This document shows, in pieces, positions 3,293-26,520 of a stretch of DNA of 64,000 bases. A program made the translations under genes and the position numbers. Within the stretch, counting starts at the first letter, position 1. Every line of letters starts with the position of its first letter. The notes under the pieces are model-generated. The model was not told the origin of the DNA and ran no database searches. It was given only the letters and a program-made list of their open reading frames with translations. Source of the stretch: Burkholderiales bacterium. Its GTDB lineage: Bacteria; Pseudomonadota; Gammaproteobacteria; Burkholderiales; SG8-41. The stretch spans positions 56,075 to 120,074 of the forward strand of contig DATICE010000162.1 in the NCBI GenBank assembly GCA_035456985.1, read 5' to 3'.

Positions 3293-5276
3293 CGGCCTCG
3301 CTCCGGAAAAAGACAGTGGAGAGCGGAGGGAGCGTCACCGTGAGCGAATAGGGTCGCCCATGCGCGGCCACCGGCGCGGCCTCCACGCCGCCCAGGTTCC
3401 CCCAGCCGGTGCCGCCGTAGTGCTTTCCATCGCTGTTGAGGAGCTCCGTCCAGCGTCCCGCGCGCGGCACGCCGATAACGTAGTTCTCGCGCGGAATCGG
3501 CGTGAAGTTGCACACAACCAGCACGAGCGGCCCGCGCCCGCGTGGCTTGCGCATGAACGTGAACACGCTGTTCACGGCGTCGTTCGCGTCGATCCACTCG
3601 AAACCCTCGTGGGTGAAATCGGCCTGCCACAGCGCGGGCTCCTCGCGGTAGCAGCGGTTGAGATCGCCGACCCATTTCTGCACGCCCCCGTGCTCGGGAA
3701 GTTCCATGACCCACCATTCGAGCTCGCCCTCGTGCGTCCACTCGCGGCGCTGGCCGAACTCGCCGCCCATGAAGAGCAGCTTCTTACCGGGATGTCCCCA
3801 CATGTAGCCGTAGAGTGCGCGCAGGCCGGCGAACTGCTGCCAGGTGTCGCCGGGCATCTTGCCGCAGAGCGAGCCTTTGCCGTAGACCACCTCGTCGTGC
3901 GAGAGCGGCAGCACGAAGTTCTCGTTGAACGCGTAGAGGAGCGAAAACGTCAGGCGCCCGTGGTGGTACTTGCGGTGGATGGGGTCCTCCCGCATGTACG
4001 CGAGGGTATCGTGCATCCAGCCCATATTCCACTTCAATCCGAATCCGAGGCCGCCGAGATACGTCGGGCGCGACACCATCGGCCACGCCGTGGACTCCTC
4101 CGCCACCGTGAACGCTTCGGGATGATCGCGGTAGACCGCTTCGTTGAGAGTCCTCAGAAAGTGGATCGCCTCGAGATTTTCCCTGCCGCCGTAGCGGTTC
4201 GGGACCCATTCGCCGTCCTTGCGGGCATAGTCCAGGTAGAGCATGGATGCGACGGCGTCCACGCGCAGGCCGTCGACATGGTAGCGGTCGAGCCAGAATA
4301 GCGCCGACGACATCAGGAACGCGCGCACTTCGTGCCGGCCGTAGTTGAAAATGCTCGAATGCCACTCCGGGTGGTAGCCCTGCCGCGGATCGGCGTGCTC
4401 GAAGAGATGCGTGCCGTCGAAGCGCGCGAGACCGTGCGGATCGTCGGGGAAGTGCGAGGGCACCCAGTCGAGGATGACGCCGATGCCGCGCCGGTGCAGG
4501 GTGTCCACTAGATACATGAGGTCCTGCGGCGTGCCGTAGCGCGCCGTCGGCGCGAAGTATCCGGTGGTCTGGTAGCCCCACGAGCCGTAGAACGGGTGCT
4601 CGGTGACCGGCATCAGCTCGACGTGCGTGAAGCCGGTCTTCTCGACGTAGTCCGCGAGCTCGTGCGCAAGCTCGCGGTAACCGAGAAAGCGCCCGTCCTT
4701 CCGTTTCCAGGATCCCGCGTGCACTTCGTAGATCGCCATCGGCGCGTCCAGCGCGTTTTTCCTGCCGCGCCCCGCCATCCACTCGGCGTCACCCCAGTCG
4801 TAATCAAGAGACCAGGTGCGGGACGCGGTCGATGGCGGGCACTCCGTGCAGAATGCGAAAGGATCCGCCTTCTCGCTCGCCCCGCCTGCGTCCGGCGTAA
4901 TGCGGAATTTGTAGCACGTGCCCTCCGCGACCTCGCCGACGAATCCTTCCCAGATACCGGAGCCGTCGCGCCGCGCCGCCAGCGGGTGCGCGACGGGGTC
5001 CCAGTCGTTGAAATCGCCCATGACCGAAACGGCGCGCGCGCCCGGTGCCCACACCCCGAAATGGAACCCCGTCACGCCGTCCGCAACCACCCGCCGCGCG
5101 CCGAGCTTCTCGTAGAGGCGGGCGTGCGTTCCCTCCTTGAAGAGATAGACGTCGTGCGTGGAGAGCGGCGATGACACAGCCTCGCGCGGCGAGCGGCTCC
5201 GCGCACCGCTACCACCCGCAGGCGGCTCGGATTTCGTGGTCTGGCGTGCTGGCATCCTCCTCGGCTTGCCATGCAT
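3285..5276 (-). CDS. glgB: 1,4-alpha-glucan branching enzyme
   Basis: 663-aa ORF with GH13 branching-enzyme motifs ([56 protein letters not shown]). Overlaps the glgE start by 8 nt (ATGACTGA). The exact start is uncertain because the N-terminus is basic and low-complexity. Confidence 0.9.
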
Positions 5277-5418
5277 CAGGAATGATCTTTCTTATCTTGT
5301 AATTGGTCTGTCCCGCGGCACCGAAAAAAGTTCCCCGCGCGTGCTGCGCCGCAGCGCCGCAATGCGAATTCCGCACCATTATGACACTGGCGTTTCCGAC
5401 GGCACCGATCGCGCGGCG

Positions 5419-6084
5419 TCACCAGGCTGCGACCACGATGACGTGAACGCGATACGGGCCGTGCGCGCCGAGCGTTACCGTCTGCTCGATGTCGGCGGTG
5501 CGCGAGGGACCGGAGATGAAATTGACCGCGCGCGGCGGGGTTCCCAACTCGTCACGCATGAGCTGCCACGCTTCTTCCATGCCGCGCACGATGCGCGATT
5601 TGCGCACGACCGCGATATGGGTTTCCGGGAGCAGGCTCACCGTGGCCGGCGTATCGCGGCCCGATAACGTCATCAGGGTGCCGGTTTCGGCGATGGCGCA
5701 GAAGGCTCCCGTGATGCCGACCGGATCGGTGTCGCGCGCTTCCCGTGCCGCAACGTCGATACCCGCGGCACGCCAATCAAGCGCCGCAAGCTCGGACCAG
5801 CATACCGCCGCATGCGGCAATGAATTCGCCTGCAGGTAACGGGCGACGGCAGCCGGGGCGTTCTCGATCGATTCCACCTCTTCCACCGTGCTCGCGAGCC
5901 CCAGCGCGCGCTCCCGAAAACGAACAAGCGGGTCCCATTCCAAGCGCGGTCGAGCATTGACGGGATGCGCCCGGATGTGCGAGCGCACGGCTTCACGCTC
6001 GGCTTCGGCGGAAACAGGTGTCTTCCCCTGCCGCGCGCGGATGCGTGCCAGAATGCTTTCCCGTGCGTGTGTCCCGTCACTCAT
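5419..6084 (-). CDS. lutC: LutC/YkgG-family lactate-utilisation protein C (LUD domain)
   Basis: 221-aa ORF with typical LutC features: SILARIRARQG N-terminus, GITGAFCAIAETGTL, and LLPETHIAVV...SRTADIE at the C-terminus. Confidence 0.8.
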   Translation of the reverse strand: MSDGTHARESILARIRARQGKTPVSAEAEREAVRSHIRAHPVNARPRLEWDPLVRFRERALGLASTVEEVESIENAPAAVARYLQANSLPHAAVCWSELAALDWRAAGIDVAAREARDTDPVGITGAFCAIAETGTLMTLSGRDTPATVSLLPETHIAVVRKSRIVRGMEEAWQLMRDELGTPPRAVNFISGPSRTADIEQTVTLGAHGPYRVHVIVVAAW

Positions 6085-6090
6085 TACGTA

Positions 6091-7611
6091 TCACCCGAGC
6101 GTGGGCATGTTGAGCCCCGGCGCCGGCGTGTCCTGGTGCGGCCAGCGGCTGGTGATGACCTTGGTGCGGGTGTAGAACTTGACGCCCTCCATGCCGTGCA
6201 CGTGGAGGTCGCCGAAGAGCGAGCTCTTCCAGCCGCCGAAGGAATAGAACGCCACGGGCACCGGAATCGGCACGTTCACGCCGACCATGCCGACCTGGAT
6301 CTCGTTCTCGAAGCGCCGCGCGGCACCGCCCGACTCGGTGAAGATCGCCGTGCCGTTGGCGTAAGGGTTGCGATTGACGAGCGCGATCGCGTCCTCCAGC
6401 GTCGTCGCCCGCAGCACGACCAGCACCGGCCCGAAGATCTCGTCCCGGTAGATCTTCATTTCCGGAGTGACGTGGTCGAACAGCGTCGTGCCGAGAAAGT
6501 AGCCCTCATCGGATCCGCGGACCTTGAGACCGCGGCCGTCAACGACAAGCTTCGCGCCCTCCTTCACCCCCTCGTCGATATAACCCGCGACTTTGTCGCG
6601 GTGCTGGGCGGTCACGAGCGGGCCCATGTCCACGCCTTCCTTGTCCCCGGGACCGACTACGATCGCCTCCGCTCTTTTCTTGAGCAGCTTCACGAGGGGA
6701 TCGGCGGCGGCGCCGACCGCGACCACCGCGGAGATTGCCATGCAGCGCTCTCCCGCCGAGCCGTAGGCCGCGCCGATCAAGGCGTCGGCGGCGAACTCGA
6801 GATCGGCATCCGGCAGCACCACCGCGTGGTTCTTCGCGCCGCCCAGGGCCTGAACCCGCTTGTGATTCTTCGCGCAGGTCTCGTAGATGTATTTTGCGAT
6901 CGGAGTGGATCCGACGAAGGACACCGCGTGGATGCCGGGATGATTGAGGATCGCGTCCACGGCTTCCTTGTCGCCGTGCACGATGTTCAGCACCCCGTCG
7001 GGCAGGCCCGCATCCTTGAAGAGCTCCGCCATGCGCATCGAGGCCGACGGCACCTTCTCCGAGGGCTTGAGCACGAAGGCGTTGCCGCATGCGATCGCCA
7101 CCGGGAACATCCACAGCGGCACCATCACCGGGAAGTTGAAGGGCGTGATGCCGGCGCACACTCCGACCGGCTGGCGCACCGTGTGGCAGTCCACGCCCGA
7201 GCCGACGTTCTCCGAGTGCTCGCCCTTCAGCAGATGGGGCACGCCGCAGGCGAATTCGACCACCTCGATCCCGCGCTGGACCGAGCCCATCGCATCGGGG
7301 AGGGTCTTGCCGTGCTCCTCGGTGACGAGCGCGGCGAGCTCCTTCTGGTGCGCCTGCATCAGCTGCAGGAATTTCTGCATCACGCGCGCGCGCCGCAGCG
7401 GCGGCGTCTCGCCCCAGCCGGGAGCCGCCGCCGTCGCGGCCTTCACTGCGTTATCGATATCGGCCGCATTGCAAAACGGAACCTTGCGGACGACGGCGCC
7501 GGTGGCGGGATTGGTGACCGTCCCGTAACGGGTGCTCATGGCGGGATGCTGCCTGCCGAAGACCCACAACGGCACGCTCGCCACGTTCTGACGCTCTCCG
7601 GGCTTGTTCAT
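6091..7611 (-). CDS. mmsA: CoA-acylating methylmalonate/malonate-semialdehyde dehydrogenase-like aldehyde dehydrogenase
   Basis: 506-aa ALDH-superfamily ORF with MSDH-like motifs: ITPFNFPVMVPLWMFPVAIACGNAFVLKPSE, GGAKNHAVVLPDAD (no general-base Glu) and catalytic Cys in GERCMA. Confidence 0.8.
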   Translation of the reverse strand: MNKPGERQNVASVPLWVFGRQHPAMSTRYGTVTNPATGAVVRKVPFCNAADIDNAVKAATAAAPGWGETPPLRRARVMQKFLQLMQAHQKELAALVTEEHGKTLPDAMGSVQRGIEVVEFACGVPHLLKGEHSENVGSGVDCHTVRQPVGVCAGITPFNFPVMVPLWMFPVAIACGNAFVLKPSEKVPSASMRMAELFKDAGLPDGVLNIVHGDKEAVDAILNHPGIHAVSFVGSTPIAKYIYETCAKNHKRVQALGGAKNHAVVLPDADLEFAADALIGAAYGSAGERCMAISAVVAVGAAADPLVKLLKKRAEAIVVGPGDKEGVDMGPLVTAQHRDKVAGYIDEGVKEGAKLVVDGRGLKVRGSDEGYFLGTTLFDHVTPEMKIYRDEIFGPVLVVLRATTLEDAIALVNRNPYANGTAIFTESGGAARRFENEIQVGMVGVNVPIPVPVAFYSFGGWKSSLFGDLHVHGMEGVKFYTRTKVITSRWPHQDTPAPGLNMPTLG

Positions 7612-7626
7612 GGCAGATTCCTCGAA

Positions 7627-9030
7627 TCAGTTTCGCCGTTTACCATACAGCTCGCGGAAGGTGCGGCCCTGCGGCGCCGGAAAATCGCGCCCATCGGTCC
7701 AGCCCCCGGCGAGCGGGAGGCGATGGATCAGCTTTCCCCGGCCGCCGATAATGGACAGCATGCGCGCGCCGAGCGCAGTCATCATCGCATAGATCGCCGG
7801 GCGCAGCGCCACCCAGCCCCAAAGCGCGAGCCCGAGCCGCTCGGGCCACGGCTTGAGCCTTTCCTCGAACTGCCGCTCGCGCAGCTTCCTCATGAGATCG
7901 GGCAGCGGAATCTTCACCGGGCAGACCACGCCGCACTGGTTGCAGAAGGTCGCCGCATTGGGCAGATCGAGCGCGTTTGCGAGCCCCACGTAGCTCGGCG
8001 TCAGCACCGAGCCCATCGGGCCGGGATAGACCCAGCCGTAGGCGTGGCCGCCCACGCTCTGGTACACCGGGCAGTGGTTCATGCAGGCGCCGCAGCGTAT
8101 GCAGCGCAGCATCGGCTGCAGGTCGCTTCCCAGCATCTCGACTCGCCCGCCGTCGAGCAGGATGACGTGGAAGTGCTCCGGCCCGTCGCGATCGCCCTCC
8201 CCCTTCACACCGGTCGTGACCGAGATGTAGTTGGAGATGGTCTGCCCCGTGCCGTGCGCCGGCAGCAGCCGCATCAGCGTTGATGCGTCCTCCAGCGTCG
8301 GCACCACTTTCTCGATGCCGGTGATCGCGACGTGCACGCGCGGCAGCGTGGTCACCAGGCGCCCGTTTCCCTCGTTGGTCACGATGAGCGTGGAGCCGGT
8401 CTCCGCCACGAGGAAATTCGCGCCGGAGATTCCCATCCCCGCGGTCAGGAACTCACGGCGCAGCATCTCTCGCGCTTCGCGGGTCAACGCCGCGATGTCG
8501 GTCTTGCGCGGGGTGCGATGCTTTGCCTCGAACAGGTCGGAGACCTCGTCGCGGGTCTTGTGCACGACCGGCGCGACGATGTGCGAAGGCGGCTCTTTCG
8601 CCAGTTGCAGGATGTACTCGCCGAGATCGGTTTCCACGACCTCGACTCCCGCCGCTTCGAGCGCCTCGTTCAGCGCGCACTCCTCCGTGACCATGGACTT
8701 CGACTTGACGGCCTTCTTGACGCCGTGCCCGCGCGCGATCTCGCACACGATCCGGTTCACGTCCTCGCGGGTCTGCGCCCAATGCACGACGGCTCCGCGC
8801 GCCACGGCGTTGCGCTCGAACTCCTCGAGATAAGCATCGAGATCGGCGAGCGCGCGGTCGCGAATCGCGGCGGCGGCGGAACGGATTTCCTCGTAATTGC
8901 CGAGCTCGGCCACGCGCTCGGCGCGCCCGCGCACGAAGTTGCCCTGCAGCCGCTTAAGGGCGGACTGAAGGTTGGCGTTGGTGAGCTTGGCGCCCGCCGA
9001 CGCTTTGAAGTGCATGGACGTGATCTGCAT
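7627..9030 (-). CDS. lutB: LutB/YkgF-family iron-sulfur lactate-utilisation protein B
   Basis: 467-aa ORF with an LUD-type domain and a ferredoxin-like cluster motif (CIRCGACMNHCPVY ... CNQCGVVCPV). Confidence 0.85.
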   Translation of the reverse strand: MQITSMHFKASAGAKLTNANLQSALKRLQGNFVRGRAERVAELGNYEEIRSAAAAIRDRALADLDAYLEEFERNAVARGAVVHWAQTREDVNRIVCEIARGHGVKKAVKSKSMVTEECALNEALEAAGVEVVETDLGEYILQLAKEPPSHIVAPVVHKTRDEVSDLFEAKHRTPRKTDIAALTREAREMLRREFLTAGMGISGANFLVAETGSTLIVTNEGNGRLVTTLPRVHVAITGIEKVVPTLEDASTLMRLLPAHGTGQTISNYISVTTGVKGEGDRDGPEHFHVILLDGGRVEMLGSDLQPMLRCIRCGACMNHCPVYQSVGGHAYGWVYPGPMGSVLTPSYVGLANALDLPNAATFCNQCGVVCPVKIPLPDLMRKLRERQFEERLKPWPERLGLALWGWVALRPAIYAMMTALGARMLSIIGGRGKLIHRLPLAGGWTDGRDFPAPQGRTFRELYGKRRN

Positions 9031-9037
9031 GGTCCTC

Positions 9038-10135
9038 TCAGCTCATGCGGTAGCGGCGAACGGCGTCCGCGTTCCAGGCGAGACCGTTGCCCGGCCGTGT
9101 GTTTAGGTTCGCGTTTCCGTCGACGATCCGCAATGGCTCTTCGAGGAGCGCATTCCCCCAGTCCACGTACTCCAGCCAGTGCGCCGTCGGCGTCACCGTG
9201 AGGAGATGCGCGCTCACCTCCGGGTAGAGGTGCGAGGACATCTTGATCTTCCTTGCCGCGGCCACCTCGGCCGCGCGCCTCCAGCCGGTGACTCCGCCGA
9301 TCCGCTCCAGGTCCGGCATCACGTAATCGCAGCACTGCGCGGCAAGCGCCCGTTCCATGTCGTGCGGGAGCGAGAAGTTTTCGCCGATCTGCACCGGTGT
9401 CGCGAGCGCGCGCGCGATCTCCGCACACCCCGCGAAATCGTCGTGCCGGATCGGCTCCTCGATCCAGTAGACGCCCTCCCCCTCTAGCGCACGGCCGCGC
9501 CGGAGCGCCTCCTCGACAGTCAGAGCCTGGTTGTAATCCACCATGAGCTTGATGTCGGCTGGTATGCGCAAGCGCACCGCGCGCGCCGCCGCGAGATCGG
9601 CTTCCAGCGTCGGATACCCGAGCCGGAGCTTGATCGCGCGGAAGCCGCCGGCGAGGAGCTTCTGCGCCTCGTCCGCCACGGCAGCGGGATCGTCCTTCAG
9701 TCCCAACCCGCAGCTGTTATACGCGGGCACGGGTCGTGGCGTTCCGCCGAGGTAGGACGCGAGCGGCATCCCCGCGGCCTTTGCCACCGCGTCCCAGGCC
9801 GCCACGTCGAACATCGCCATTGCCATGCGCACGATGCCCTGCACTCCGATCAGCACGAAACGTTTCGCGAGCTTTGCCCACAGGACGGCCGGCTCCACCC
9901 GGTCGCCCTTGACCGTTCGCAGCACCTCCTCGAGCAGGACCGCGATCGCGGGCGCTGCGGCGGGGAGATAACAGAACTGCCACGCGTGCCCCGTCACGCC
10001 CTCCTCGGTTTCGAGATCCACGAGCAGCAGCGGCGCCTCGCGCACCGCTTGCTGGCTGGTGCCGAGCACGTACGTCATCGGCACCTTCACACCGACGGCG
10101 CGGATGTTGCGGACGGTGATTTTGGGCGGCGTCAC
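9038..10135 (-). CDS. Enolase-superfamily enzyme (mandelate racemase / muconate lactonising enzyme family; probable acid-sugar dehydratase or racemase)
   Basis: The C-terminal 366 codons of track ORF 9038..10564 show the MR/MLE pattern (FRAIKLRLG, KLMVDYNQA, VYWIEEPIRHDD, IQIGENF, DYVMPDLERIGG). I trimmed the start to GTG 10135..10133, a GTGA overlap with the upstream stop. The Arg/Pro-rich extension upstream lies inside the neighbouring gene. Confidence 0.8.
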   Translation of the reverse strand: MTPPKITVRNIRAVGVKVPMTYVLGTSQQAVREAPLLLVDLETEEGVTGHAWQFCYLPAAAPAIAVLLEEVLRTVKGDRVEPAVLWAKLAKRFVLIGVQGIVRMAMAMFDVAAWDAVAKAAGMPLASYLGGTPRPVPAYNSCGLGLKDDPAAVADEAQKLLAGGFRAIKLRLGYPTLEADLAAARAVRLRIPADIKLMVDYNQALTVEEALRRGRALEGEGVYWIEEPIRHDDFAGCAEIARALATPVQIGENFSLPHDMERALAAQCCDYVMPDLERIGGVTGWRRAAEVAAARKIKMSSHLYPEVSAHLLTVTPTAHWLEYVDWGNALLEEPLRIVDGNANLNTRPGNGLAWNADAVRRYRMS

Positions 10136-11055
10136 GCCTTCCGGCCCTGCGCATGCAGGATCAGAATATCCCGCGCCGCGCGATGGACGGGCGTCGGCAC
10201 GCCAACGGCCGCGCCGAGCTCGACCACGGAGCCTGAAAGCCACTCCACTTCCAGAGGGTTGCCGCGCTCGAGATCGAGCTGCATTGAAGCCGTCATCGTC
10301 GACGGCAGCGTGTCCACGAACGCCATGCGTTCTTCGGCGAAGTCTTCCGGGAGGCGGATCCCATGGGCCCGGCCCACGGCCGCGGCTTCGCGTAACGCGT
10401 CGAGGTAGAACTTGCGGGTCATGGGATGACTGCGAATCGGGCCGATCGGCAGGCGAATGGTCGCGGTGACGGCGGCCATAGCCACCAGGAACACGAATTT
10501 CTCCCAGAGCGTGCGGCGGATATCGTCGGAAATCGCAGCGTCGAGACCGCCTTTCCGGCACCACTCGAGCAACGCCTCGGCGCGCTTCGAGCGCCGGCCG
10601 CTGTATTCGCCGAACACCACCCTCTGCATGGTTCCGGTGTGCTGGATCACGCCGGGACGGGAAATCGCGGTCCCCATGTACGCGACGCCGCCCATCAACG
10701 CCTTCTCGCCGATGATGGGGCGCAGGATGTCGTCCTTCACCACGCCGTTCTGGAGCGAGATCACGCCGGTTTCCGGACCGATGAGCGGCAGGATCTGGCG
10801 CGCCGCGGAATCAGTATCCCAGAGCTTGACCGAAAAGATGACTATATCGACCTGTCCCAGCGTCGCCGGATCGTCGGTCACTTGCACCGTGCGGAGGCGC
10901 ACGTTCTCGACCTGACTTTCGAGCTTGAGGCCATGCTCGCGCATTGCGGCGAGATGCGCCCCGCGGGCAATGAAAGACACGTCGCAACCTGCGTGCGCGA
11001 GGCGGGCTCCGATCAGCCCACCCACGCCGCCAGAACCCATCATTGCTATTTTCAT
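10132..11055 (-). CDS. 2-dehydropantoate 2-reductase family oxidoreductase (ApbA/PanE-like)
   Basis: 307-aa ORF with an N-terminal Rossmann motif (MKIAMMGSGGVGGLIGARLA) and a KPR-family C-terminal domain. Its start overlaps the lutA stop (ATGA). Confidence 0.75.
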   Translation of the reverse strand: MKIAMMGSGGVGGLIGARLAHAGCDVSFIARGAHLAAMREHGLKLESQVENVRLRTVQVTDDPATLGQVDIVIFSVKLWDTDSAARQILPLIGPETGVISLQNGVVKDDILRPIIGEKALMGGVAYMGTAISRPGVIQHTGTMQRVVFGEYSGRRSKRAEALLEWCRKGGLDAAISDDIRRTLWEKFVFLVAMAAVTATIRLPIGPIRSHPMTRKFYLDALREAAAVGRAHGIRLPEDFAEERMAFVDTLPSTMTASMQLDLERGNPLEVEWLSGSVVELGAAVGVPTPVHRAARDILILHAQGRKA

Positions 11056-11780
11056 AATCCCTCCCCTGCGAGCACTTCGGCAACGTGGAGCACTTTCGTC
11101 TTCGTGTCACCTCGCCGCCGCAGCCGGCCCTCGATGTTGAGCATGCAGCCGAGGTCCCCCAGCACCACCGCGTCGGCGCCGCTGGCGGCAACATTGGCGC
11201 ACTTGCGCTCGGCAATATGGGTGGAGATCTCGCCGAACTTCAGGGCGAAGGTGCCGCCGAAGCCGCAGCAGGTCTCGGCCTCCTCCATCTCCCTGAGCGT
11301 CAATCCCGGCAGGCTCGCGAGCAGCTTGCGGGGCTGGGCCTTGACGCCGAGCTCGCGCAGGCCCGCGCACGAATCATGGTATGTGATGGTGCCCTTGAAC
11401 GATCCCGGCGCGCGATCGAGCTTGACCACGCTCGCGAGAAAATCGGTCAATTCATAAGTGCGAGCGGACAGCCGCTTCACGCGCTCGAGCGTGCCGGATT
11501 CGTCGCGGAACAGCTCCGGGTAATGGGCGCGGATCATTCCGCCGCAGGAGCCCGAGGGGACGACGACATAATCGAAGCCCTCAAACTCGTCGAGCACCTT
11601 GGCCGCAAGCGCCCGGGCGGATCCGCGGTCCCCGGAGTTGTACCCGGGCTGGCCGCAGCACGTCTGCGCGCGCGGGACGACGACTTCGCACCCGGCGGCC
11701 TCCAGCAGCTTGATCGCGGCAAACCCGATGCGTGGCCGCATCAGGTCCACGAGGCAGGTGATGAAAAGCCCGACGCGCAC
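11052..11780 (-). CDS. lutA: LutA/YkgE-family (Fe-S)-binding oxidoreductase subunit (two CCG domains)
   Basis: 242-aa ORF reading MRVGLFITCLVD..QTCCGQPGYNSGD..YHDSCAGLRELG..ETCCGFGGTF, the classic CCG-domain pair of LutA. Confidence 0.85.
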   Translation of the reverse strand: MRVGLFITCLVDLMRPRIGFAAIKLLEAAGCEVVVPRAQTCCGQPGYNSGDRGSARALAAKVLDEFEGFDYVVVPSGSCGGMIRAHYPELFRDESGTLERVKRLSARTYELTDFLASVVKLDRAPGSFKGTITYHDSCAGLRELGVKAQPRKLLASLPGLTLREMEEAETCCGFGGTFALKFGEISTHIAERKCANVAASGADAVVLGDLGCMLNIEGRLRRRGDTKTKVLHVAEVLAGEGL

Positions 11781-11786
11781 GATCGA

Positions 11787-12752
11787 TTACTGGCGGATGC
11801 CGAGCGCGGTGACGAGCTTCTCGTAGAGCTCGTACTGCTCGCGCACGTACTGCTCGGTCGCGGCGGGCGAACGGATCGCCACAACGCCTCCGATCCGGGC
11901 GTTGCCCGCGATCCAGTCCGGGTCCTTGGCAAGACGCGCGAACACCTCCGTCCAGCGGCTCACGATCGCACTGGACACTCCCGGTGGTCCCATGAGCGCG
12001 GTCCAGCCGACGATCTTCTCCATGTCCGGATAGCCCGCCTCGCGCGCGCTCGGTACGCCGGGCAGGTCGGCGATGCGCACCGGCGAGACGAAGAGCGTGC
12101 GCAGCCTGCCCGCCTTCGCCAGCGGAATCACGGTGGGCGCGTTGTTGCACGCAAAATTCACCTCGCCGCCGAGAACGGCGGTGGTGACCTCTCCCCCGCT
12201 CTTGTAGTGAATGCCGACCGCGTGGTCCTTGGTCAGCCCGGCGAGCGTCATCAGGTACTGCGCAGCCATGTTCTGGCTGGTGGCGACGCCGGCGGTCGAA
12301 AAATTGAGCTTGCCGGGACTGCGGCGGATCTCGCCGATGAGGTCGGCCGCCGTCTTGTGGGGCGAGTCGCTTCTCACGAAGCAGACATACGGGTTCAGCT
12401 CGATCATCGAGATCATCGTGAACTCGTTCCACTTGTACGGGAGCTTCGAGTCGAGCGCGGGCAGGATCGCGTGCGTGGCGATGCGAGCCACCAGCAGCGT
12501 ATAGCCATCGGGAACCGCGTTCTTCACCAGATTCGCGGCGATTGCGCCCGAGGCGCCCACGCGATTGACCGACACGATCGGCACGTTGTTGAGATACTTC
12601 GCGGCAGTCTGCGCAACGTTGCGCCCGGATAGATCCGAATCGCCGCCCGCCCCGAACGGGATCACGAACTGGATGGGCCGCGTCGGATAAGTCTGCGCGA
12701 GCGCGCCCGCACAGACGAGCCCCAGGCCGGTTGCCAGAATCCAAGTCTTCAT
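11787..12752 (-). CDS. Bug-family tripartite tricarboxylate transporter (TTT) periplasmic substrate-binding protein
   Basis: 321-aa ORF with a signal peptide followed by the Bug signature AQTYPTRPIQFVIPFGAGGDSD. Confidence 0.85.
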   Translation of the reverse strand: MKTWILATGLGLVCAGALAQTYPTRPIQFVIPFGAGGDSDLSGRNVAQTAAKYLNNVPIVSVNRVGASGAIAANLVKNAVPDGYTLLVARIATHAILPALDSKLPYKWNEFTMISMIELNPYVCFVRSDSPHKTAADLIGEIRRSPGKLNFSTAGVATSQNMAAQYLMTLAGLTKDHAVGIHYKSGGEVTTAVLGGEVNFACNNAPTVIPLAKAGRLRTLFVSPVRIADLPGVPSAREAGYPDMEKIVGWTALMGPPGVSSAIVSRWTEVFARLAKDPDWIAGNARIGGVVAIRSPAATEQYVREQYELYEKLVTALGIRQ

Positions 12753-12777
12753 GCTCCTCCTCCCGTTGGGTCGCGGC

Positions 12778-13806
12778 CTACCGGTACAGGCCCTGCTTCT
12801 CGAGCCAGCCCTGGATCACGCCAGCAACCTGGTCGCTGTTCCGATCCATCATCATCATGTGCGAGTTGCCCCGGATACCGATCTTGGGCAAATCCACAAC
12901 CTCGTAGCGGCCGCCCGCCTGCCGCACCTCCTCCAGGAATTGCACGCCGTTCGCCCTGATCTTGGGCCAGCGCGCATCGGACTCGATGTAATCGCCGTAA
13001 ACCGCAAGTATCGGCACATTCCTCAGGCGGTCGACCTGCTTGCGGTCTCCGACACCTGCCGGCTCGACCAGTACCAGCGCTTTCACCTTCTCCGGACGCG
13101 CCTGGGCAACTCTCAGCCCGAACTGGCCTGACTGGGAATGAATCAGGACGACGCACGGGCACACCCTGTCCACCAGTTCCGTGTAGGCGGCGATGATGGC
13201 CGGATCCGTAGTGGTCCAGCGCGGTACCCCCTGCCTGGTGAAATTGTCGTAACCCTCCGCGGGAAACTGGCTGCCGGGCAGCAGCTTCATCTTCGAAGGG
13301 TCCTTGTTGTAGGAGCCCCGACCGGCTCCGATCCGGAAGCGCTCGAACGGGTTCTCCTTGGTCAGGAACACGGGCTCCCCCTTGAAGATGTCGGGGTACA
13401 TCGCCCAGCCCGAGCGCCCGCGCTCCACCGCGTCGGAGTTGTAGACCGCCCAGCCTTTCTTGAGGAAGTAGTTGAGCCAGCCTTCACGCCCGTCAGGCGT
13501 GGTCTCATAAGTGACGCCGGTGAGCCCGCCCCCGTGCCACATCAGCAGCGGCAGCGCGCCGCGTTGGTCTTGCGGAATGAAGTACTGCACGTACATCTGC
13601 TCGACCTGGTAGACGCCGTTGGGATCCACCTTGGCGGGCACCCCGCCCGGAGTAAACACGATTTCCTTCACCGGCTTCCCCGAAATGACCACCTCGCGAC
13701 CGCCCACATGGAAGGAGCCCATTTCTTTGAGCTGGATCGGCGCCTGCGAGCAGGCTGCCAGGAGTCCCGCAGCGAGCGCTGCGCATGAATGTCCGATCAG
13801 TTTCAT
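12778..13806 (-). CDS. Alpha/beta-hydrolase-fold esterase, probable lipoprotein
   Basis: 342-aa ORF with a lipobox-like N-terminus (LAAGLLAACSQ) and a nucleophile-elbow-like VVLIHSQSGQFG. Substrate unknown. Confidence 0.6.
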   Translation of the reverse strand: MKLIGHSCAALAAGLLAACSQAPIQLKEMGSFHVGGREVVISGKPVKEIVFTPGGVPAKVDPNGVYQVEQMYVQYFIPQDQRGALPLLMWHGGGLTGVTYETTPDGREGWLNYFLKKGWAVYNSDAVERGRSGWAMYPDIFKGEPVFLTKENPFERFRIGAGRGSYNKDPSKMKLLPGSQFPAEGYDNFTRQGVPRWTTTDPAIIAAYTELVDRVCPCVVLIHSQSGQFGLRVAQARPEKVKALVLVEPAGVGDRKQVDRLRNVPILAVYGDYIESDARWPKIRANGVQFLEEVRQAGGRYEVVDLPKIGIRGNSHMMMMDRNSDQVAGVIQGWLEKQGLYR

Positions 13807-13864
13807 CTATTAGCCTCCCAAGGTTGTGAATGCTTTGGTTGTGACCGTAAAATCGCCGCCGCGC

Positions 13865-14950
13865 TCAGATGCGCCACGGTCGCAGAAACGCCATGCGGTC
13901 CATTGAGCGCACTGTCAGCTGCCGCACGGTCTTCCTGTGCAGCACGTGCAGCACGACCGCGGCCCCCGCCTCGCCGCTCGCCCATAGTCTCTGATAGAAC
14001 TCGCTCTGGCGCCCCACCGCCTGTCCGCCCACTCCGAGTATGACGTCGCCCCGCGCGAGACCGGCCTGCTCCGCCGGCGACTGGGGCAGCACCCGCGTCA
14101 CCACTACGTGTCCCTGGATCTCCTCGGAATAGACGCCGAGCCAGGGCCGCGGCGGCTCGCGCCGGCGACCGGTCGCAAGAAGATCGGCGAGCAGCGGCTT
14201 CAAAAGGTCGATGGGGACGAACATGTTACCGGGAAACGCGGCGCCGATCTCGAGCGCGTCGCTGACCCAGAGCGAGCCCACTCCCACCAGCTTGCCGTCT
14301 GCATCGAGCAGTGCCGCGCCGCTGTGCTCGAAGCGCGGCGGTGCCGTGAATATCCCGCCTTCGATCATGTATTCCCACCAGCCGGTGAAGCGGCGGCGCG
14401 ACACCACGCACGCGCGTGACCCGCCGCCGGCCGCGCCGTGGGCTGCGACCAGGACGGTCGCAAGCTCCCGCACCTCGGCCGAGTTCCCCACCTCCAGGGG
14501 CCGGCAGTCAATGCCGGCGCGCAGCACGCCGAAGCCCGTGGCGTGGTCGTAGCCGATGACGCTCGCCGGAAAGACACGCCCGTCTCCGGCAACGACCAGG
14601 ATGGAGCCCGCCTCGAGTATCAGGTAGCCGATCGTGACGATGAGCCCCTTCTCGCCGAACACCACCCCCGTGCCCTCGCGCTCGATCCCCAGGTTCTCGG
14701 CTGTGCGCGCATCCGGCACCGCCTTGATGGAGAGCTTCACGACGCCTTCGAGCGGCACGTTGTCCGCACGCAGCTCGGGCACGGCGAGATGGGCAGCGCG
14801 CCAGGCGGAGAGGGCTGCGGTGAAGAAGGAGACGGTCACGGTCGGGGTGCGCGTTGAACGGAAGCAACCTGCCGATTCCGCGCGCACGTCTAAACCGGCG
14901 CATTGCGTCGGGATTTGACCAATGTTATCGGGGCGCTTGCCGCCGGGCAA
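13865..14950 (-). CDS. Trypsin-like (S1C/HtrA-like) domain plus PDZ domain protein; catalytic triad apparently degenerate
   Basis: 361-aa ORF with an HtrA-like core (GTGVVFGEKGLIVT..GDGRVFPASVIGYD..HSGAALLDADGKLVGV) and a C-terminal PDZ (GHVVVTRVLPQSPAEQAGLARGDVILGVGGQAV). The start is uncertain; an internal alternative start before VTVSFFTAALSAW is possible. Confidence 0.6.
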   Translation of the reverse strand: MPGGKRPDNIGQIPTQCAGLDVRAESAGCFRSTRTPTVTVSFFTAALSAWRAAHLAVPELRADNVPLEGVVKLSIKAVPDARTAENLGIEREGTGVVFGEKGLIVTIGYLILEAGSILVVAGDGRVFPASVIGYDHATGFGVLRAGIDCRPLEVGNSAEVRELATVLVAAHGAAGGGSRACVVSRRRFTGWWEYMIEGGIFTAPPRFEHSGAALLDADGKLVGVGSLWVSDALEIGAAFPGNMFVPIDLLKPLLADLLATGRRREPPRPWLGVYSEEIQGHVVVTRVLPQSPAEQAGLARGDVILGVGGQAVGRQSEFYQRLWASGEAGAAVVLHVLHRKTVRQLTVRSMDRMAFLRPWRI

Positions 14951-14989
14951 CGGGTGCCGGCCGGCGCGCGGCGAGAGGTAACAGCGTGC

Positions 14990-15610
14990 TTAGGCGGGCG
15001 CCCGGTAGCGGACGCCGATGATTTCGATCTCGGCCTCGCCGGCGGGGGTGGCGAGCGTCACGACGTCGCCGCTGCGCTTCTTGAGCAGCACCCGGGCGAT
15101 AGGAGACAGCCAGCTCACCTGGCCGCGCTTCACATCCACCTCATCCACCCCCACGATGGTGATGGTGCGCTCGTCGCGCCCACCGCGTACGTAGGCATAG
15201 GTGACTGTGGCGCCGAAGAATATCTGGTCGGAGTCGCCGCGCCGCACCGGATCCACCACTTCCGCGCTGTCGAGGCGCTTATTGAGATAGTGGATGCGGC
15301 GGTCGATCTCGCGCAGCCGCTTCTTGCCGTAGATGTAATCGCCGTTTTCCGAGCGATCGCCGTTGGAGGCCGCCCACTGGATGGTCTTGACGAGCTCGGG
15401 GCGCTCGGCGTCGAGAAGCTTGCTCAATTCGGTCTTGAGCCGCGCGTAACCGAGCGGCGTGATGTAGTTCTTGGCCTCCGGTGCAGTAGCGGCCGTGGTC
15501 GCAGCGCGCCCATTGCCGTTGCGACCATGTCCGTTGCCGTTGCGGCCATGCCCATTGCCGTTACGCCCGTTGCCGTTGCGATTACGCGAAGCTGTCGCTG
15601 ACTTGCTCAT
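14990..15610 (-). CDS. greB: Transcription elongation (transcript cleavage) factor GreB with an N-terminal Asn/Gly-rich repeat extension
   Basis: From ATG 15610 the product reads MSKSATASRNRNGNGRNGNGHGRNGNGHGRNGNGRAATT..NYITPLGYARLKTEL..WAASNGDRSENGDYIYGKKRLREIDRRIHYL..WLSPIARVLLKK. The Gre core is unambiguous. I trimmed the track ORF (to 15748) to the first ATG preceding the repeat. Confidence 0.85.
   Translation of the reverse strand: MSKSATASRNRNGNGRNGNGHGRNGNGHGRNGNGRAATTAATAPEAKNYITPLGYARLKTELSKLLDAERPELVKTIQWAASNGDRSENGDYIYGKKRLREIDRRIHYLNKRLDSAEVVDPVRRGDSDQIFFGATVTYAYVRGGRDERTITIVGVDEVDVKRGQVSWLSPIARVLLKKRSGDVVTLATPAGEAEIEIIGVRYRAPA
15509..15580. repeat. Four imperfect copies of a 15-nt core (CCSRTTGCCGTTRCG), two of them in 21-nt units, inside the greB 5' end
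   Basis: Read directly as cccattgccgttgcg / accatg tccgttgccgttgcg / gccatg cccattgccgttacg / cccgttgccgttgcg. It encodes (RNGNG[HG])n on the minus strand. Confidence 0.85.
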
Positions 15611-15729
15611 GGTGGGTGTGAGTGCGGTACGTTTCGAGCGGGGGAGCCTCATAGTATAGCAAAAACAACGTATTACTGGCGATAGCTTGGGCGATGCTCC
15701 AGAACCCCGCCCAAACGAAGGGTTCTTAA

Positions 15730-15758
15730 TTGTCGCTGCCGATTTCATATTGTAAAAT
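15730..15758 (+). promoter_or_regulatory. Candidate sigma70-type promoter of the IclR gene with an overlapping inverted repeat (possible auto-operator)
   Basis: TTGTCG (15730..15735), a 17-nt spacer, then TAAAAT (15753..15758), about 30 nt upstream of the GTG start. The inverted repeat CGATTT-N9-AAATCG overlaps the -10 element. Sequence pattern only. Confidence 0.35.
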
Positions 15759-15788
15759 CGACCCCCAAAACCAATTCAACCCCCTGCC

Positions 15789-16559
15789 GTGACAAGAGAA
15801 AAAGAGACCCGGTCCTCGATCCAGGTCATCGATCGCATGATGAGTCTGCTCGGGGCCCTTTCCCGCCATGGCTCCCCGGTCAACCTCAAGCAGCTCGCCA
15901 CCGAGACGCGGCTGCACCCCTCCACCGCGCACCGCATCCTCTCCGTGATGGTGGGCAGCCGGCTGGTGGACCGGATCGAGCCGGGCACCTACCGCCTCGG
16001 GATCCGGCTGCTCGAGCTCGGCAGTCTGGTCAAATCGCGGATCAGCGTGCGCCAGGAAGCCCTGCCGCACATGCAGAGCCTGCAACAGGAGCTGGGTGAA
16101 ACAATCAACCTGTCGGTGCGCCACGATGACGAGGTCGTTTATGTCGAGCGCATCTCCGGCAACAACTCGATGATGCGAGTCGTGCAGATCATCGGTGCCC
16201 GCGCGCCGCTGCACATCACGGCAGTGGGCAAGATCTTCCTCGCCGAGGACAGCCCCGGGAAGTGCGCCGAATACGCGCGGCGTACCGGCTTGCCGCGCTA
16301 CACCGACAATACGCTGACCGATGCCGATGCCCTCGCAAAGGAACTCGAGAAGGTCCGCCGCCAGGGCTACGCCTCCGACAACGAGGAGGCCGAGAAGGGG
16401 GTTTCCTGCCTTGGCGCCGGCATCCACAACGACGAAGGCCGCCTCGTCGCCGGCCTCTCCGTCTCCGCGCCCTCCGACCGGCTCAACAAAGCATGGGCTA
16501 CCCAGGTGCGCCAGACCGCTGAGAAGATCTCGCGGGCCATCGGCCACCCGATCCGGTGA
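15789..16559 (+). CDS. IclR-family transcriptional regulator
   Basis: 256-aa ORF with an N-terminal wHTH (SIQVIDRMMSLLGALS..LKQLATETRLHPSTAHRILSVM) and a C-terminal IclR effector domain (ASDNEEAEKGVSCLGAGI). Confidence 0.85.
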   Translation: MTREKETRSSIQVIDRMMSLLGALSRHGSPVNLKQLATETRLHPSTAHRILSVMVGSRLVDRIEPGTYRLGIRLLELGSLVKSRISVRQEALPHMQSLQQELGETINLSVRHDDEVVYVERISGNNSMMRVVQIIGARAPLHITAVGKIFLAEDSPGKCAEYARRTGLPRYTDNTLTDADALAKELEKVRRQGYASDNEEAEKGVSCLGAGIHNDEGRLVAGLSVSAPSDRLNKAWATQVRQTAEKISRAIGHPIR

Positions 16560-16566
16560 CTGGCCG

Positions 16567-17961: not shown

Positions 17962-18003
17962 ATCGAACGCGCCCGCATGCTGCAGGCGCTGGCCAAGGGA
18001 AGA

Positions 18004-23172: not shown

Positions 23173-23190
23173 GCCGTCACCCCGTTACCG

Positions 23191-24537: not shown

Positions 24538-24583
24538 GATTTTTGTCTCCAGATGGCGGCTGGGGACGCCGCGCTTTTGGTAA

Positions 24584-25966
<1,383 letters not shown>

Positions 25967-25989
25967 CCGCAATACCTCCCGCCGCTGCA

Positions 25990-26520
25990 ATGGCGCGCGT
26001 CCCGCTCATCGACGAACACGCCACGCCAGAAATCGCCGCGCTCGCCGCGAAGATCCGCGGGGCCCGCGGCGGCCAGCTGCATGTCTTCTACCAGGCGCTG
26101 CTGCACACGCCAGCTCTCGCTTCCGCGTGGTTCGAATTCAACAACGCGGTGCGGTTCCGCACCGGCCTCGGCGACCGTGTGCGGGAGCTCGCGATCATGC
26201 GCGTCGCGGCCCTGACCGGCTGCGACTACGTCTGGCGAGTCCACCAGGCACAGTACGCGGCCCCCGCCGGCGTTACGCCGCGCGAAGTCGAGGCCCTGCG
26301 CGACTGGCGCAAGTCGGGCGTCTTCGGCGCGCGCGAGAGCGCGCTGCTCGCGTACGTGGATGCCATGACGAGGGACGTGGCGGTCCCCGACGCCGTTTTT
26401 GGCGAGATGAGCGGGCATTTCAGCGCGCGCGAGACGGTGGAAGTGACGGTGCTCGTCGGCGCTTACAACATGCAGACGCGCGTGCTGAGGGCACTCGACC
26501 TCGACCCCGAGAAAACGTGA
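25990..26520 (+). CDS. Carboxymuconolactone decarboxylase (AhpD-like) family protein
   Basis: 176-aa ORF with the CMD-family pattern (LHTPALASAWFEFNNAVRF..RELAIMRVAALTGCDYVWRVH). Confidence 0.7.
   Translation: MARVPLIDEHATPEIAALAAKIRGARGGQLHVFYQALLHTPALASAWFEFNNAVRFRTGLGDRVRELAIMRVAALTGCDYVWRVHQAQYAAPAGVTPREVEALRDWRKSGVFGARESALLAYVDAMTRDVAVPDAVFGEMSGHFSARETVEVTVLVGAYNMQTRVLRALDLDPEKT

Follow-up and report, generated by a model that had tools for sequence, protein, structure and literature searches.

A conserved six-gene unit in uncultured Betaproteobacteria interleaves lutA, lutB and lutC with other enzyme genes and may serve 2-hydroxy acid catabolism

The window, by which we mean the whole 64,000-nucleotide stretch of DNA that was analysed, derives from an uncultured soil betaproteobacterium. 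Eight genes lie on its minus strand between positions 5419 and 13806. In order, they are predicted to encode a lipoprotein carboxylesterase of the esterase-713/SulE-like alpha/beta-hydrolase family (abH, 12778..13806, 342 aa), a Bug/TctC periplasmic binding protein of the tripartite tricarboxylate transporter (TTT) type (11787..12752, 321 aa), LutA (11052..11780, 242 aa, GTG start), a 2-oxoacid/(R)-2-hydroxyacid oxidoreductase of the ketopantoate reductase (KPR; ApbA/PanE) family with ApbA N- and C-terminal domains (10132..11055, 307 aa), a mandelate-racemase-like (MR-like) enolase-superfamily enzyme with MR_MLE N- and C-terminal domains (9038..10135, 365 aa, GTG start), LutB (7627..9030, 467 aa), a CoA-acylating methylmalonate/malonate-semialdehyde dehydrogenase (MMSDH, mmsA, 6091..7611, 506 aa), and LutC (5419..6084, 221 aa), the last gene of the conserved core.

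An ORF check recovered all eight genes, and the sequence-only reading that preceded this analysis had placed them and their junctions exactly to the base. The tight coupling that it described is seen in spacers of 25 nt (abH to Bug) and 6 nt (Bug to lutA), followed by two 4-nt overlaps, ATGA between lutA and the KPR-like gene and GTGA between the KPR-like and MR-like genes, and then by spacers of 7 nt (MR-like to lutB), 15 nt (lutB to MMSDH) and 6 nt (MMSDH to lutC). Within 5419-13806, a consensus search turned up no minus-strand site resembling a promoter, and terminator-like matches were fewer (four) than expected from shuffles (6.4). From the spacing, we infer that these genes would be co-transcribed as one unit. 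Its upstream edge is not fixed; 58 nt before abH is the end of a PDZ-protease gene on the same strand. No convincing terminator was found 3' of lutC (z = 0.95), which is separated from glgB by a gap of 142 nt.

The earlier family assignments hold against Pfam and NCBIfam profiles and, for the esterase, a match to PDB 1qlw. LutA matches PF02754 in two CCG cysteine-rich stretches (E = 3e-34) and resembles the C-terminal part of LdhH (204 bits). LutB combines a LUD domain (PF02589), a 4Fe-4S dicluster (Fer4, PF13183) and LutB_C (PF11870); it passes the L-lactate equivalog model TIGR00273 (458.8, cutoff 444.8), so its substrate may be ordinary L-lactate. LutC carries a LUD domain (PF02589, E = 2.8e-32). 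The MMSDH scores 726 bits against TIGR01722 (cutoff 448.5), 644 bits against PDB 5tjr and 632 bits against 4zz7, and by these matches is a canonical CoA-acylating (methyl)malonate-semialdehyde dehydrogenase. Since no producer of (methyl)malonate semialdehyde was found among the cluster genes, this enzyme may be functionally unrelated to the rest of the cluster.

Conservation extends to six of the genes, lutA, KPR-like, MR-like, lutB, mmsA and lutC, in uncultured Burkholderiales-like Betaproteobacteria. The six-gene order recurs at the same chromosomal site in about 15-20 betaproteobacterial MAG loci, and the orders lutA-KPR-MR-lutB and/or lutB-MMSDH-lutC in about 20 independent loci, with proteins 60-97% identical to those of the window. 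Interleaved order is seen at loci L001, L003, L004, L005, L010, L012, L015, L017, L032, L037, L071, L074, L081 and L082; wherever this order occurs, the MMSDH gene sits between lutB and lutC. These loci share their flanks, with genes for IclR, a Gre-like protein and a PDZ-protease upstream and glgB-glgE-treS downstream. Internal order differs in L019, where all components are still together. L024 has its three lut genes side by side as lutABC, 2.1 kb away from KPR-MR, with two opposite-strand genes in between and MMSDH absent; the association is therefore not obligatory. Conservation of the interleaved order thus holds for the six-gene core and not for the eight-gene operon first described, as the esterase and Bug come and go. 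The conserved interleaving argues for co-expression and against stand-alone lactate utilisation, in keeping with the dedicated pathway first suggested. No published description of the arrangement, or its assignment to a known pathway, was found in the literature searched.

The front of the operon is less stable. The esterase aligns with Alcaligenes esterase 713 (PDB 1qlw, 177 bits), including the SQSG serine and the NSHMMM histidine, and its translation contains an L-A-A-C lipobox; no Pfam match was found for it. Its gene is present at four loci only (the window, L011, L012 and L019). In L081, a locus 92-97% identical to that of the window, the esterase gene is absent and the DNA is colinear on either side; the Bug orthologue is 91% identical, and a divergent AraC regulator gene occupies the space between it and lutA, versus 6 nt in the window. 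This comparison indicates recent remodelling of the operon's 5' end. The Bug protein matches PF03401 (TctC, 138 bits). Among solved structures it comes closest to binding proteins of the BugE, AdpC and terephthalate types (100-128 bits), a result that does not pin down its ligand; neither tctA nor tctB was found within the cluster. Bug, sulfatase, AraC and EamA genes vary in presence between loci. By these distributions, the esterase and Bug are lineage-specific accessory additions outside the conserved core, so Bug uptake and ester or lactone hydrolysis do not qualify as the core steps once proposed. Nor is IclR (15789..16559) favoured as the regulator, as two genes lie between it and the cluster and L081 has AraC directly upstream of lutA.

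The KPR-MR pair has a much wider distribution, spanning Beta- and Alphaproteobacteria, Acidobacteriota and Actinobacteria, often in the arrangement TetR|KPR-MR. KPR adjoins MR in 52 of 79 loci; where flanking DNA was sufficient (n = 45), 22 loci had KPR-MR only and eight the full interleaved set. Self-contained TetR|KPR-MR units occur in Polaromonas JS666, Variovorax, Trebonia and others, and the contexts of the pair are many and unrelated, including housekeeping regions and plasmids. Judged by this distribution, KPR-MR is a pre-existing, mobile, translationally coupled two-gene module that is widespread and uncharacterised. The unit would have originated through placement of this module, its MR bearing K-x-R, between lutA and lutB and of MMSDH between lutB and lutC.

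The best solved relative of the MR-like protein is Pseudomonas putida mandelate racemase (303-305 bits, 43% identity). A placement among acid-sugar dehydratases was rejected: it scores 159 bits against TalrD/GalrD, no solved sugar-acid dehydratase scores higher, and it falls far below every NCBIfam dehydratase equivalog cutoff. Mandelate racemase uses Lys166 as its S-specific and His297 as its R-specific base (PMC9835602). The MR-like protein reads K-L-R at the K164-T-K166 position, and R166 is invariant in 80 of 80 aligned family sequences. In these sequences the rest of the catalytic set is as in mandelate racemase, with the metal ligands (D195, E221, E247), D270, H297, E317 and K164 kept. 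Much of the hydrophobic pocket is also conserved, including F52, Y54, L93 and L298. Cultured homologues from Polaromonas JS666 (WP_011486028) and Bradyrhizobium Ash2021 both have KxR, whereas K-T-K is found in the proteins of genuine mdlCBA operons, which are located on Burkholderia and Rhizobium replicons and have mdlB/mdlC as neighbours. As Arg is able to serve as a base in some enzymes, the MR-like enzyme may be a racemase despite R166.

The KPR-like protein passes the subfamily model TIGR00745 and scores below the PanE equivalog (NF005091, 240.3 against a cutoff of 252), with 23% identity to E. coli PanE. It resembles PanE and KPR-family reductases in its ApbA fold and in its catalytic residues (K72, N98, K176, E210, S244 and E256), which, together with D248, are invariant. 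In 54 sequences, the pantoate-binding residues are replaced: N180 by L, N184 by S/A, N194 by I/L/V/M and N241 by M. By this pattern, the enzyme has kept its catalytic residues and has hydrophobic residues in place of the Asn ligands of the pantoate 4-OH and carboxylate; the housekeeping panB is 25 kb away and unlinked to the cluster. The KPR family also holds D-mandelate and D-2-hydroxyisovalerate dehydrogenases/reductases, the D-mandelate dehydrogenase being bacterial. It further includes the fungal 2-oxoisovalerate reductase KivR (PMC3478992); the residue roles and the 2R stereochemistry of the product are described in PMC10127515. The mobile KPR-MR module, the invariant Lys166 to Arg change and the lost pantoate ligands are all absent from the sequence-only reading.

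Overall, we consider catabolism of a small 2-hydroxy acid by the conserved six-gene unit, with C2 stereochemistry managed by three enzymes, to be the best explanation (probability roughly 0.45). That the six genes serve one hydroxy-acid pathway is somewhat better than an even bet. Because the interleaved order is conserved and the two inserted genes form a widespread enzyme pair, the unit probably acts in the breakdown of a 2-hydroxy acid that is not plain lactate. This carboxylic acid would be small and probably aliphatic or branched, though any named substrate would at this stage be an unlikely guess. LutABC would first oxidise its (S)-isomer to the 2-oxo acid, by analogy with the Ralstonia eutropha LutACB complex, which acts on the (S)-C3-C4 2-hydroxy acids L-lactate and (S)-2-hydroxybutyrate (PMC10656315). 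The KPR-like enzyme would then interconvert this 2-oxo acid with the (R)-isomer of the hydroxy acid, as KPR-family enzymes give 2R products. The MR-like enzyme would act on the (R)-isomer, since only the (R)-specific His297/Asp270 base is kept and Arg replaces the (S)-specific Lys166. This sequence of (S)-isomer, oxo acid, (R)-isomer and MR-like step is tentative.

For the MR-like reaction, a beta-elimination or dehydration that uses one base and yields a 3-deoxy-2-oxo acid would be more likely than a slow or unusual racemisation. The MR-like and KPR-like pockets both look largely hydrophobic, a feature that fits poorly with a beta-leaving group except in a substrate such as a 2,3-dihydroxy branched acid. 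The MMSDH would act on (methyl)malonate semialdehyde formed further downstream, e.g. by a valine-type route from 2-oxoisovalerate; this is the weakest step of the scheme, as the aldehyde-making enzyme is absent from the cluster. The esterase, Bug and the sulfatases of relatives may be interchangeable front ends that free the hydroxy acid from conjugates and deliver it.

Alternatively, the MR-like enzyme might be a true racemase, with LutABC oxidising the (S)-isomer and the KPR-like enzyme working as an NAD(P)-dependent (R)-2-hydroxyacid dehydrogenase, in a mirror image of the mandelate MdlA/MdlB steps that would bring both enantiomers to one 2-oxo acid, e.g. 2-oxoisovalerate or 2-oxobutyrate. 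The kinship with mandelate racemase, its conserved pocket residues and the D-2-hydroxyacid enzymes and KivR of the KPR family are consistent with this, and the TetR|KPR-MR unit alone would allow use of both enantiomers with a single dehydrogenase. However, the Lys retained in genuine mdlCBA operon proteins is Arg in all family members, a racemase would be redundant given an S-specific oxidase and an R-specific dehydrogenase, and a route from 2-oxo acid through (R) to (S) into LutABC would be a futile cycle. We therefore regard this as unlikely.

It is similarly doubtful that LutABC is a normal L-lactate oxidase among whose genes KPR-MR and mmsA landed, persisting by co-expression alone and sharing no pathway. 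The LutB equivalog score, the mobility of KPR-MR, the lack of an obvious substrate supplier for MMSDH and the recent 5' remodelling all suit such a history. Against it, the interleaved order survives protein divergence to 60-65% identity and several accessory-gene changes, neighbouring genes overlap by 4 nt or lie 6-15 nt apart, and L019 reorders the genes yet keeps all components together. The original scheme, in which uptake by Bug and hydrolysis of a lactone or ester are followed by dehydration of an acid sugar by the enolase-superfamily enzyme, keto reduction, LutABC oxidation and semialdehyde oxidation, is improbable: although the window has esterase and Bug genes, dehydration could proceed in a one-base active site and, to our knowledge, all characterised MR-subgroup members other than mandelate racemase are acid-sugar dehydratases, most core-bearing loci lack esterase and Bug, the MR-like protein is far from such dehydratases in score, both module pockets are without the polar ligands that one would expect for polyhydroxy acids, and the aldehyde dehydrogenase is a CoA-acylating MMSDH rather than of the 2-oxoglutarate-semialdehyde type.

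The preferred reading, hydroxy acid catabolism by the six-gene unit, has partial parallels in known systems. Sulfolactate degradation employs SlcC and ComC as a 'racemase by two dehydrogenases', followed by the (R)-specific lyase SuyAB, with a TTT transporter, SlcHFG. The proposed S-specific oxidation, R-specific reduction, R-only enzyme and TTT-type binding protein would resemble it as a mechanism analogy, not as membership: the protein families are completely different, sulfite-handling genes are absent and the pocket residues look hydrophobic. The L019 cluster contains an Ldh_2 gene of the ComC family, comparable to ComC of the sulfolactate route. The mandelate pathway mdlCBA(D) comprises mandelate racemase, S-mandelate dehydrogenase, benzoylformate decarboxylase and benzaldehyde dehydrogenase. 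There too, a single operon brings together an MR-type enolase-superfamily enzyme, an aldehyde dehydrogenase and a system for the S-specific oxidation of 2-hydroxy acids; here, however, a KPR-family reductase and LutABC are found in contrast to FMN-dependent MdlB, a ThDP decarboxylase is absent and the aldehyde dehydrogenase is a CoA-acylating MMSDH. Characterised LutABC systems have three contiguous genes in variable order (ABC or ACB). The LutABC/LldEFG/YkgEFG systems (Bacillus subtilis lutABC, E. coli ykgEFG, Ralstonia eutropha and Neisseria lutACB) have the same three subunit types and domain architectures as those predicted for the present unit, which differs in that other enzyme genes lie between each lut pair, in an order conserved in a clade.

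The eight open reading frames that the sequence-only reading had placed on the minus strand between 5419 and 13806 were all found at exactly those coordinates, and searches of Pfam and NCBIfam upheld every family assignment in the cluster. Read 5' to 3' on that strand, the genes encode an esterase, a Bug binding protein, LutA, a ketopantoate-reductase-family protein (KPR-like, 10132..11055), a mandelate-racemase-like enolase-superfamily enzyme (MR-like, 9038..10135), LutB, a (methyl)malonate-semialdehyde dehydrogenase (MMSDH, product of mmsA, 6091..7611) and LutC. They are tightly coupled. As read from the sequence, the esterase gene ends in TAG and is followed by a 25-nt spacer containing a ribosome-binding site (GGAGGAGG); 6 nt separate the Bug gene from lutA, which starts with GTG; lutA and the KPR-like gene overlap by 4 nt (ATGA), as do the KPR-like and MR-like genes (GTGA); and spacers of 7 nt, 15 nt and 6 nt precede lutB, mmsA and lutC, respectively. 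A consensus scan detected no minus-strand promoter-like sites within the cluster, and terminator-like sites were fewer there than in shuffled sequences. The G+C content of the window is ~66% and the cluster region is free of any compositional break.

The boundaries of the cluster are not sharply defined. A PDZ-protease gene on the same strand ends 58 nt upstream of the esterase gene. Downstream, the 142-nt gap after lutC was examined for a terminator and folds no better than shuffled sequence; glgB-glgE (1283-5276, minus strand) follow directly. Read-through from the hydroxy-acid operon into glgB is possible, since this gap has no convincing terminator. In relatives, glgB-glgE are followed by treS-mak (14931-21098 in L081, a close homologue on a long contig), which corresponds to the GlgE alpha-glucan pathway. 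On the other side of the cluster, the plus strand carries an IclR gene and then a Cho-like gene with RNase_T exonuclease and GIY-YIG domains (15789-17961), the longest reading frames of which overlap by ~240 nt. Synteny of the IclR / Gre-like / PDZ-protease block extends to every close relative, irrespective of its lut accessory genes. Further along (22144-28542), a 342-aa reading frame without a Pfam match adjoins an MmgE/PrpD-family gene and is followed by purB, a CMD-family gene and another TctC/Bug gene.

Comparative genomics, proposed earlier as a check on the interleaved order, found this order again in related loci. Scanning one genome per GTDB species with the MR-like protein turned up at least 539 relatives, of which the 80 best-matching loci, all of them in MAGs, were used for mapping the window proteins; two close homologues on long contigs (L081, L082) were added. 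The order lutA-KPR-MR-lutB-mmsA-lutC is present whole or to the contig end in L001, L003, L004, L005, L010, L012, L015, L017, L032, L037, L049, L071, L074, L081 and L082, with partial versions in L002, L006, L007, L011, L021, L025 and L035. Identity to the window proteins across the interleaved loci ranges from ~60% to 97%. Because it is this order that is conserved among relatives, the eight-gene unit first proposed reduces to a core of six genes, with variable esterase and Bug genes. The lut genes are non-contiguous, with two genes between lutA and lutB and a single gene between lutB and lutC, as is also the case in ~15 related loci. The closer relatives also share a chromosomal site, with IclR, Gre-like and PDZ-protease genes upstream and glgB-glgE-treS/mak downstream. 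The six-gene interleaved unit is real, conserved and unannotated.

Some loci depart from this order. L019 reads lutA-MR-Ldh_2-x-Bug-KPR-Bug-lutB-mmsA-lutC, and in L057 mmsA and then lutC directly follow the MR-like gene. L024 has a contiguous lutABC 2.1 kb from KPR-MR, with MetE-like and FAH-family genes on the opposite strand between them, and has no mmsA. L003, L017, L021, L037 and L063 are betaproteobacterial-type loci in MAG records labelled Streptomycetaceae, Chitinophaga or Bifidobacteriaceae; these labels, which probably reflect mis-binning or mislabelling of the source assemblies, were left out of inference.

Among the loci compared, the esterase gene is confined to the window, L011, L012 and L019, and Bug genes differ in number and position. 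Sulfatase (PF00884) genes lie directly upstream of the lut/KPR/MR cluster in L001, L003, L010 (1183-2604), L011, L012 (4660-6195), L015, L019 and L082 (6569-7993); they are co-directional or divergent, some are paired with Bug genes, and the window has none at that place. Between the MR-like gene and lutB, an EamA transporter gene is found in L005, L006, L010 and L082, and a 2OG-oxygenase gene together with a CBS-domain gene in L012. The esterase, sulfatase, Bug and EamA genes, all variable, look like interchangeable front ends that would release or transport the acid. The esterase has no Pfam match. It matches PDB 1qlw (Alcaligenes esterase 713) at 177 bits over residues 22-337, with SQSG (Ser) and NSHMMM (His) aligned, is also homologous to SulE-like esterases and carries an LAAC lipobox. 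The Bug protein has a TctC domain, and no tctA or tctB was found in or beside the cluster or among the scanned window genes; a solved-structure search for a clue to its ligand matched generic TTT binding proteins only. Burkholderiales commonly carry orphan Bug genes, and elsewhere in the window tblastn detected three Bug paralogues with weak similarity (29-32% identity). An Ldh_2 gene (ComC/malate-lactate dehydrogenase family 2) is attached to the MR-like gene in L019 (11278-12327), as are FAH-family hydrolase genes in L024 (12346-13269) and on a Bradyrhizobium Ash2021 plasmid (L085, 11081-11842).

The 5' part of the window cluster was compared with that of L081, the proteins of which are mostly 91-97% identical (LutC 85%) and the DNA ~93% identical. 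At the DNA level, the difference spans window 11780-13864 and L081 5507-8356. Relative to L081, the alignment shows a gain of ~1.17 kb, carrying the esterase gene, between the PDZ-protease and Bug genes, and a loss of ~1.85 kb between Bug and lutA that held two small ORFs and a divergent AraC-family regulator. Eight bases are left at the site of this loss, made up of the 6-nt spacer and the final two nucleotides of the Bug stop codon. On this comparison, recent remodelling has joined Bug to lutA through that spacer.

The Lut subunits have canonical domains by Pfam: two CCG domains in LutA; LUD, 4Fe-4S dicluster and LutB_C domains in LutB; and a LUD domain in LutC. LutB scores 458.8 on TIGR00273 (cutoff 444.8), and a structure search retrieved no solved structure of a LutB relative. 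The R. eutropha LutACB system uses L-lactate and (S)-2-hydroxybutyrate as substrates, and contiguous lut gene order can vary (PMC10656315). Judged by its scores with TIGR01722 (726 bits; cutoff 448.5) and with PDB 5tjr (644 bits) and 4zz7 (632 bits), the aldehyde dehydrogenase is a canonical CoA-acylating (methyl)malonate-semialdehyde dehydrogenase. Catabolism of 2-oxoisovalerate ends in methylmalonate semialdehyde; this is the sole established link to MMSDH, the presence of which is not directly accounted for.

The closest solved relative of the MR-like protein is P. putida mandelate racemase (303-305 bits, 43% identity). Its top structure match is the K166R mutant 1mdl, because the window has K-L-R in place of K164-T-K166. 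Active-site positions were fixed by homology to mandelate racemase and PanE, and the MR-like alignment comprised the window protein and 79 relatives, the best 80 of at least 539. D195, E221, E247, K164, N197, S139, Y54 and L93 are invariant in these sequences; D270, H297 and E317 are conserved in 79 of the 80, the remaining row being a gap; and position 52 is Phe in 77 and Trp in three. The residues that define the MR subgroup (D195, E221, E247; the H297-D270 dyad; E317) are therefore all in place. Position 166 is Arg in 80/80, so that the KxK motif of mandelate racemase is lacking, and the homologues from Polaromonas sp. JS666 and Bradyrhizobium Ash2021 are KxR too. Also conserved, and specific to this K-x-R family, are L22-G23-T24-S25, an Arg near MR position 30 in the 20s flap, N138 and V319. 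In the library searched, no paper on the K-x-R family or on the interleaved arrangement was found.

Mandelate racemase uses Lys166 to deprotonate (S)-mandelate and His297 to deprotonate (R)-mandelate (PMC9835602). Since these are the S-specific and R-specific bases, respectively, the K-x-R family keeps only the R-specific one. K-T-K is retained by the proteins of genuine mdlC-mdlB-mdlA operons (Burkholderia RPE67 and Rhizobium K84 replicons), which share 41-47% identity with the window protein; Pfam found no mdlB or mdlC homologues in the window cluster, and such context was seen only for KxK homologues. As it lacks a defining feature, Lys166, the K-x-R family should not be filed as mandelate racemase. 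Kinship with the acid-sugar dehydratases, among which it had been proposed to place the protein, found no backing: the best dehydratase match, NF047820 (TalrD/GalrD), reached 224.5 bits against a cutoff of 500. Assignment as an acid-sugar dehydratase (TalrD/GalrD, FucD, RhamD, GalD and others) was rejected, the protein falling below the equivalog model and matching TalrD/GalrD (PDB 2pp0) at 159 bits, compared with 305 for mandelate racemase.

The KPR-like protein has both ApbA domains (N- and C-terminal) and the catalytic Lys176, Glu256 and Asn98. It passes the ApbA/PanE subfamily model and scores 240.3 on the PanE equivalog NF005091, just below the cutoff of 252. The E. coli PanE reference sequence was checked against PDB 1yjq and aligned with 54 module partners, in which K72, N98, K176, E210, S244, D248 and E256 (PanE numbering) are invariant. 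Four PanE asparagines are replaced in these 54 sequences: N180 by Leu, N184 by Ser/Ala, N194 by Ile/Leu/Val/Met and N241 by Met. In PanE, the 4-OH is bound through Asn194 and Asn241 and the carboxylate through Asn184 and Ser244, and hydride delivery gives 2R products (PMC10127515); the KPR family also includes a 2-oxoisovalerate reductase (PMC3478992). Given the replaced 4-OH and carboxylate ligands, this 2R chemistry and the known family members, the KPR-like protein is by homology a 2-oxoacid / (R)-2-hydroxyacid oxidoreductase that has a more hydrophobic pocket and is not adapted to pantoate. Pantoate is an unlikely substrate because the 4-OH ligands are missing. The housekeeping panB lies 25 kb from the cluster, unlinked.

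The KPR-MR pair has a modular origin. Neighbour clustering placed a KPR-family gene immediately upstream of the MR-like gene in 52 of 79 loci. Where at least 4 kb upstream and at least 6 kb downstream were available (45 loci), 22 had KPR-MR only, 14 MR only and eight the full interleaved unit; the one remaining locus is L024. Loci with KPR-MR only are spread over Betaproteobacteria, Alphaproteobacteria, Acidobacteriota and others and have no other neighbour in common; a search outside the Lut clade for conserved neighbours that might point to a substrate gave just TetR and, in part of the loci, GSTs. Alphaproteobacterial K-x-R orthologues without KPR (L026, L028, L038, L039, L050-L054; about 3000-18000) are flanked by lptB-rpoN-ptsN upstream and aroA-cmk-rpsA downstream, a housekeeping context that is uninformative. 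A frequent neighbour of theirs, encoded on the other strand, is an ACMSD-like Amidohydrolase_2 gene.

A further homology search, with the JS666 protein as seed, and six context look-ups showed that the self-contained unit of a TetR gene (TetR_C_13) and KPR-MR (KxR) present in JS666 recurs in Variovorax, Trebonia and several metagenome contigs; it is absent from one locus looked up. The loci that carry it are L084 (JS666), L089/L090, L088, L091 and L093/L094. On plasmid 1 of Polaromonas sp. JS666 (L084, NC_007949, 10352-14899), TetR adjoins KPR-MR-GST-GST next to a haloacid dehalogenase and an ActP-type symporter, and two glutathione S-transferase genes likewise follow the unit in L089/L090. 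The Bradyrhizobium plasmid carries MR-FAH with GST, SDR and haloacid dehalogenase genes nearby. Detoxification-type genes near the TetR-linked unit (L084, L088, L089/L090) encode haloacid dehalogenase, OYE, AhpC, a chromate transporter and SOD, and in L089 an IS66 transposase and a conjugative-transfer gene fragment adjoin it.

From the observed gene content, six-gene order and active-site features, we infer a sequence of enzyme steps that fits the stereochemistry of LutABC, the KPR-like and the MR-like enzyme. LutABC would produce the 2-oxo acid from an (S)-2-hydroxy acid, the KPR-like enzyme would interconvert this 2-oxo acid with the (R)-2-hydroxy acid, and the MR-like enzyme would deprotonate only the (R)-isomer, after which beta-elimination/dehydration to a 3-deoxy-2-oxo acid or an unusual racemisation may follow. 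KPR and MR would travel together because one makes or uses the (R)-isomer and the other acts on it alone, and the resulting route from S through oxo to R would make an S-specific oxidase useful beside them. A true racemase would be redundant, even futile, next to an S-specific oxidase and the KPR-like enzyme. A more far-reaching reading, tentative at a probability of roughly 0.3, is that KPR/MR (K-x-R) is an unrecognised, widespread pair that converts a 2-oxo acid to an (R)-2-hydroxy acid and passes it to a one-base, (R)-specific eliminase/dehydratase with Arg166, or to a racemase with unprecedented Arg acid/base chemistry, and that LutABC has been recruited to a non-lactate (S)-2-hydroxy acid.

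With respect to the substrate, the MR-like and KPR-like pockets look largely hydrophobic, and the two conserved MR-like arginines (166 and ~30) could bind an anionic group. Sulfolactate, halolactate, tartrate/malate and glycerate were considered as substrates and none could be supported. The sulfatases of relatives and the haloacid dehalogenase and GST genes of plasmid copies are suggestive hints, but none of these genes is conserved alongside the core.

'L-lactate utilisation' is the annotation that LutABC receives everywhere. The conserved split-lut operon suggests that the complex has been recruited to another 2-hydroxy acid, and it shows how an annotation applied wholesale may mislead. With the inserted KPR-like/MR-like pair comes an uncharacterised family of the enolase superfamily; in the 80 sequences aligned, Arg replaces the textbook S-specific base of mandelate racemase. 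It is a clear and cheap target for enzyme discovery, with Polaromonas sp. JS666 plasmid 1 as a cultured source. No major paradigm would be changed; the gain is in annotation, enzymology and soil carbon metabolism.

Compared with known systems, the unit is a LutABC-operon variant that resembles the mandelate pathway in outline and is a strict member of neither. It has the subunit domains of LutABC systems and differs from them in its non-contiguous lut genes. With the mandelate pathway it shares the MR metal ligands and H297-D270, whereas Lys166, mdlB and mdlC are absent. The proposed three-enzyme route of stereo-inversion and elimination would follow a logic like that of sulfolactate degradation, although the protein families are unrelated.
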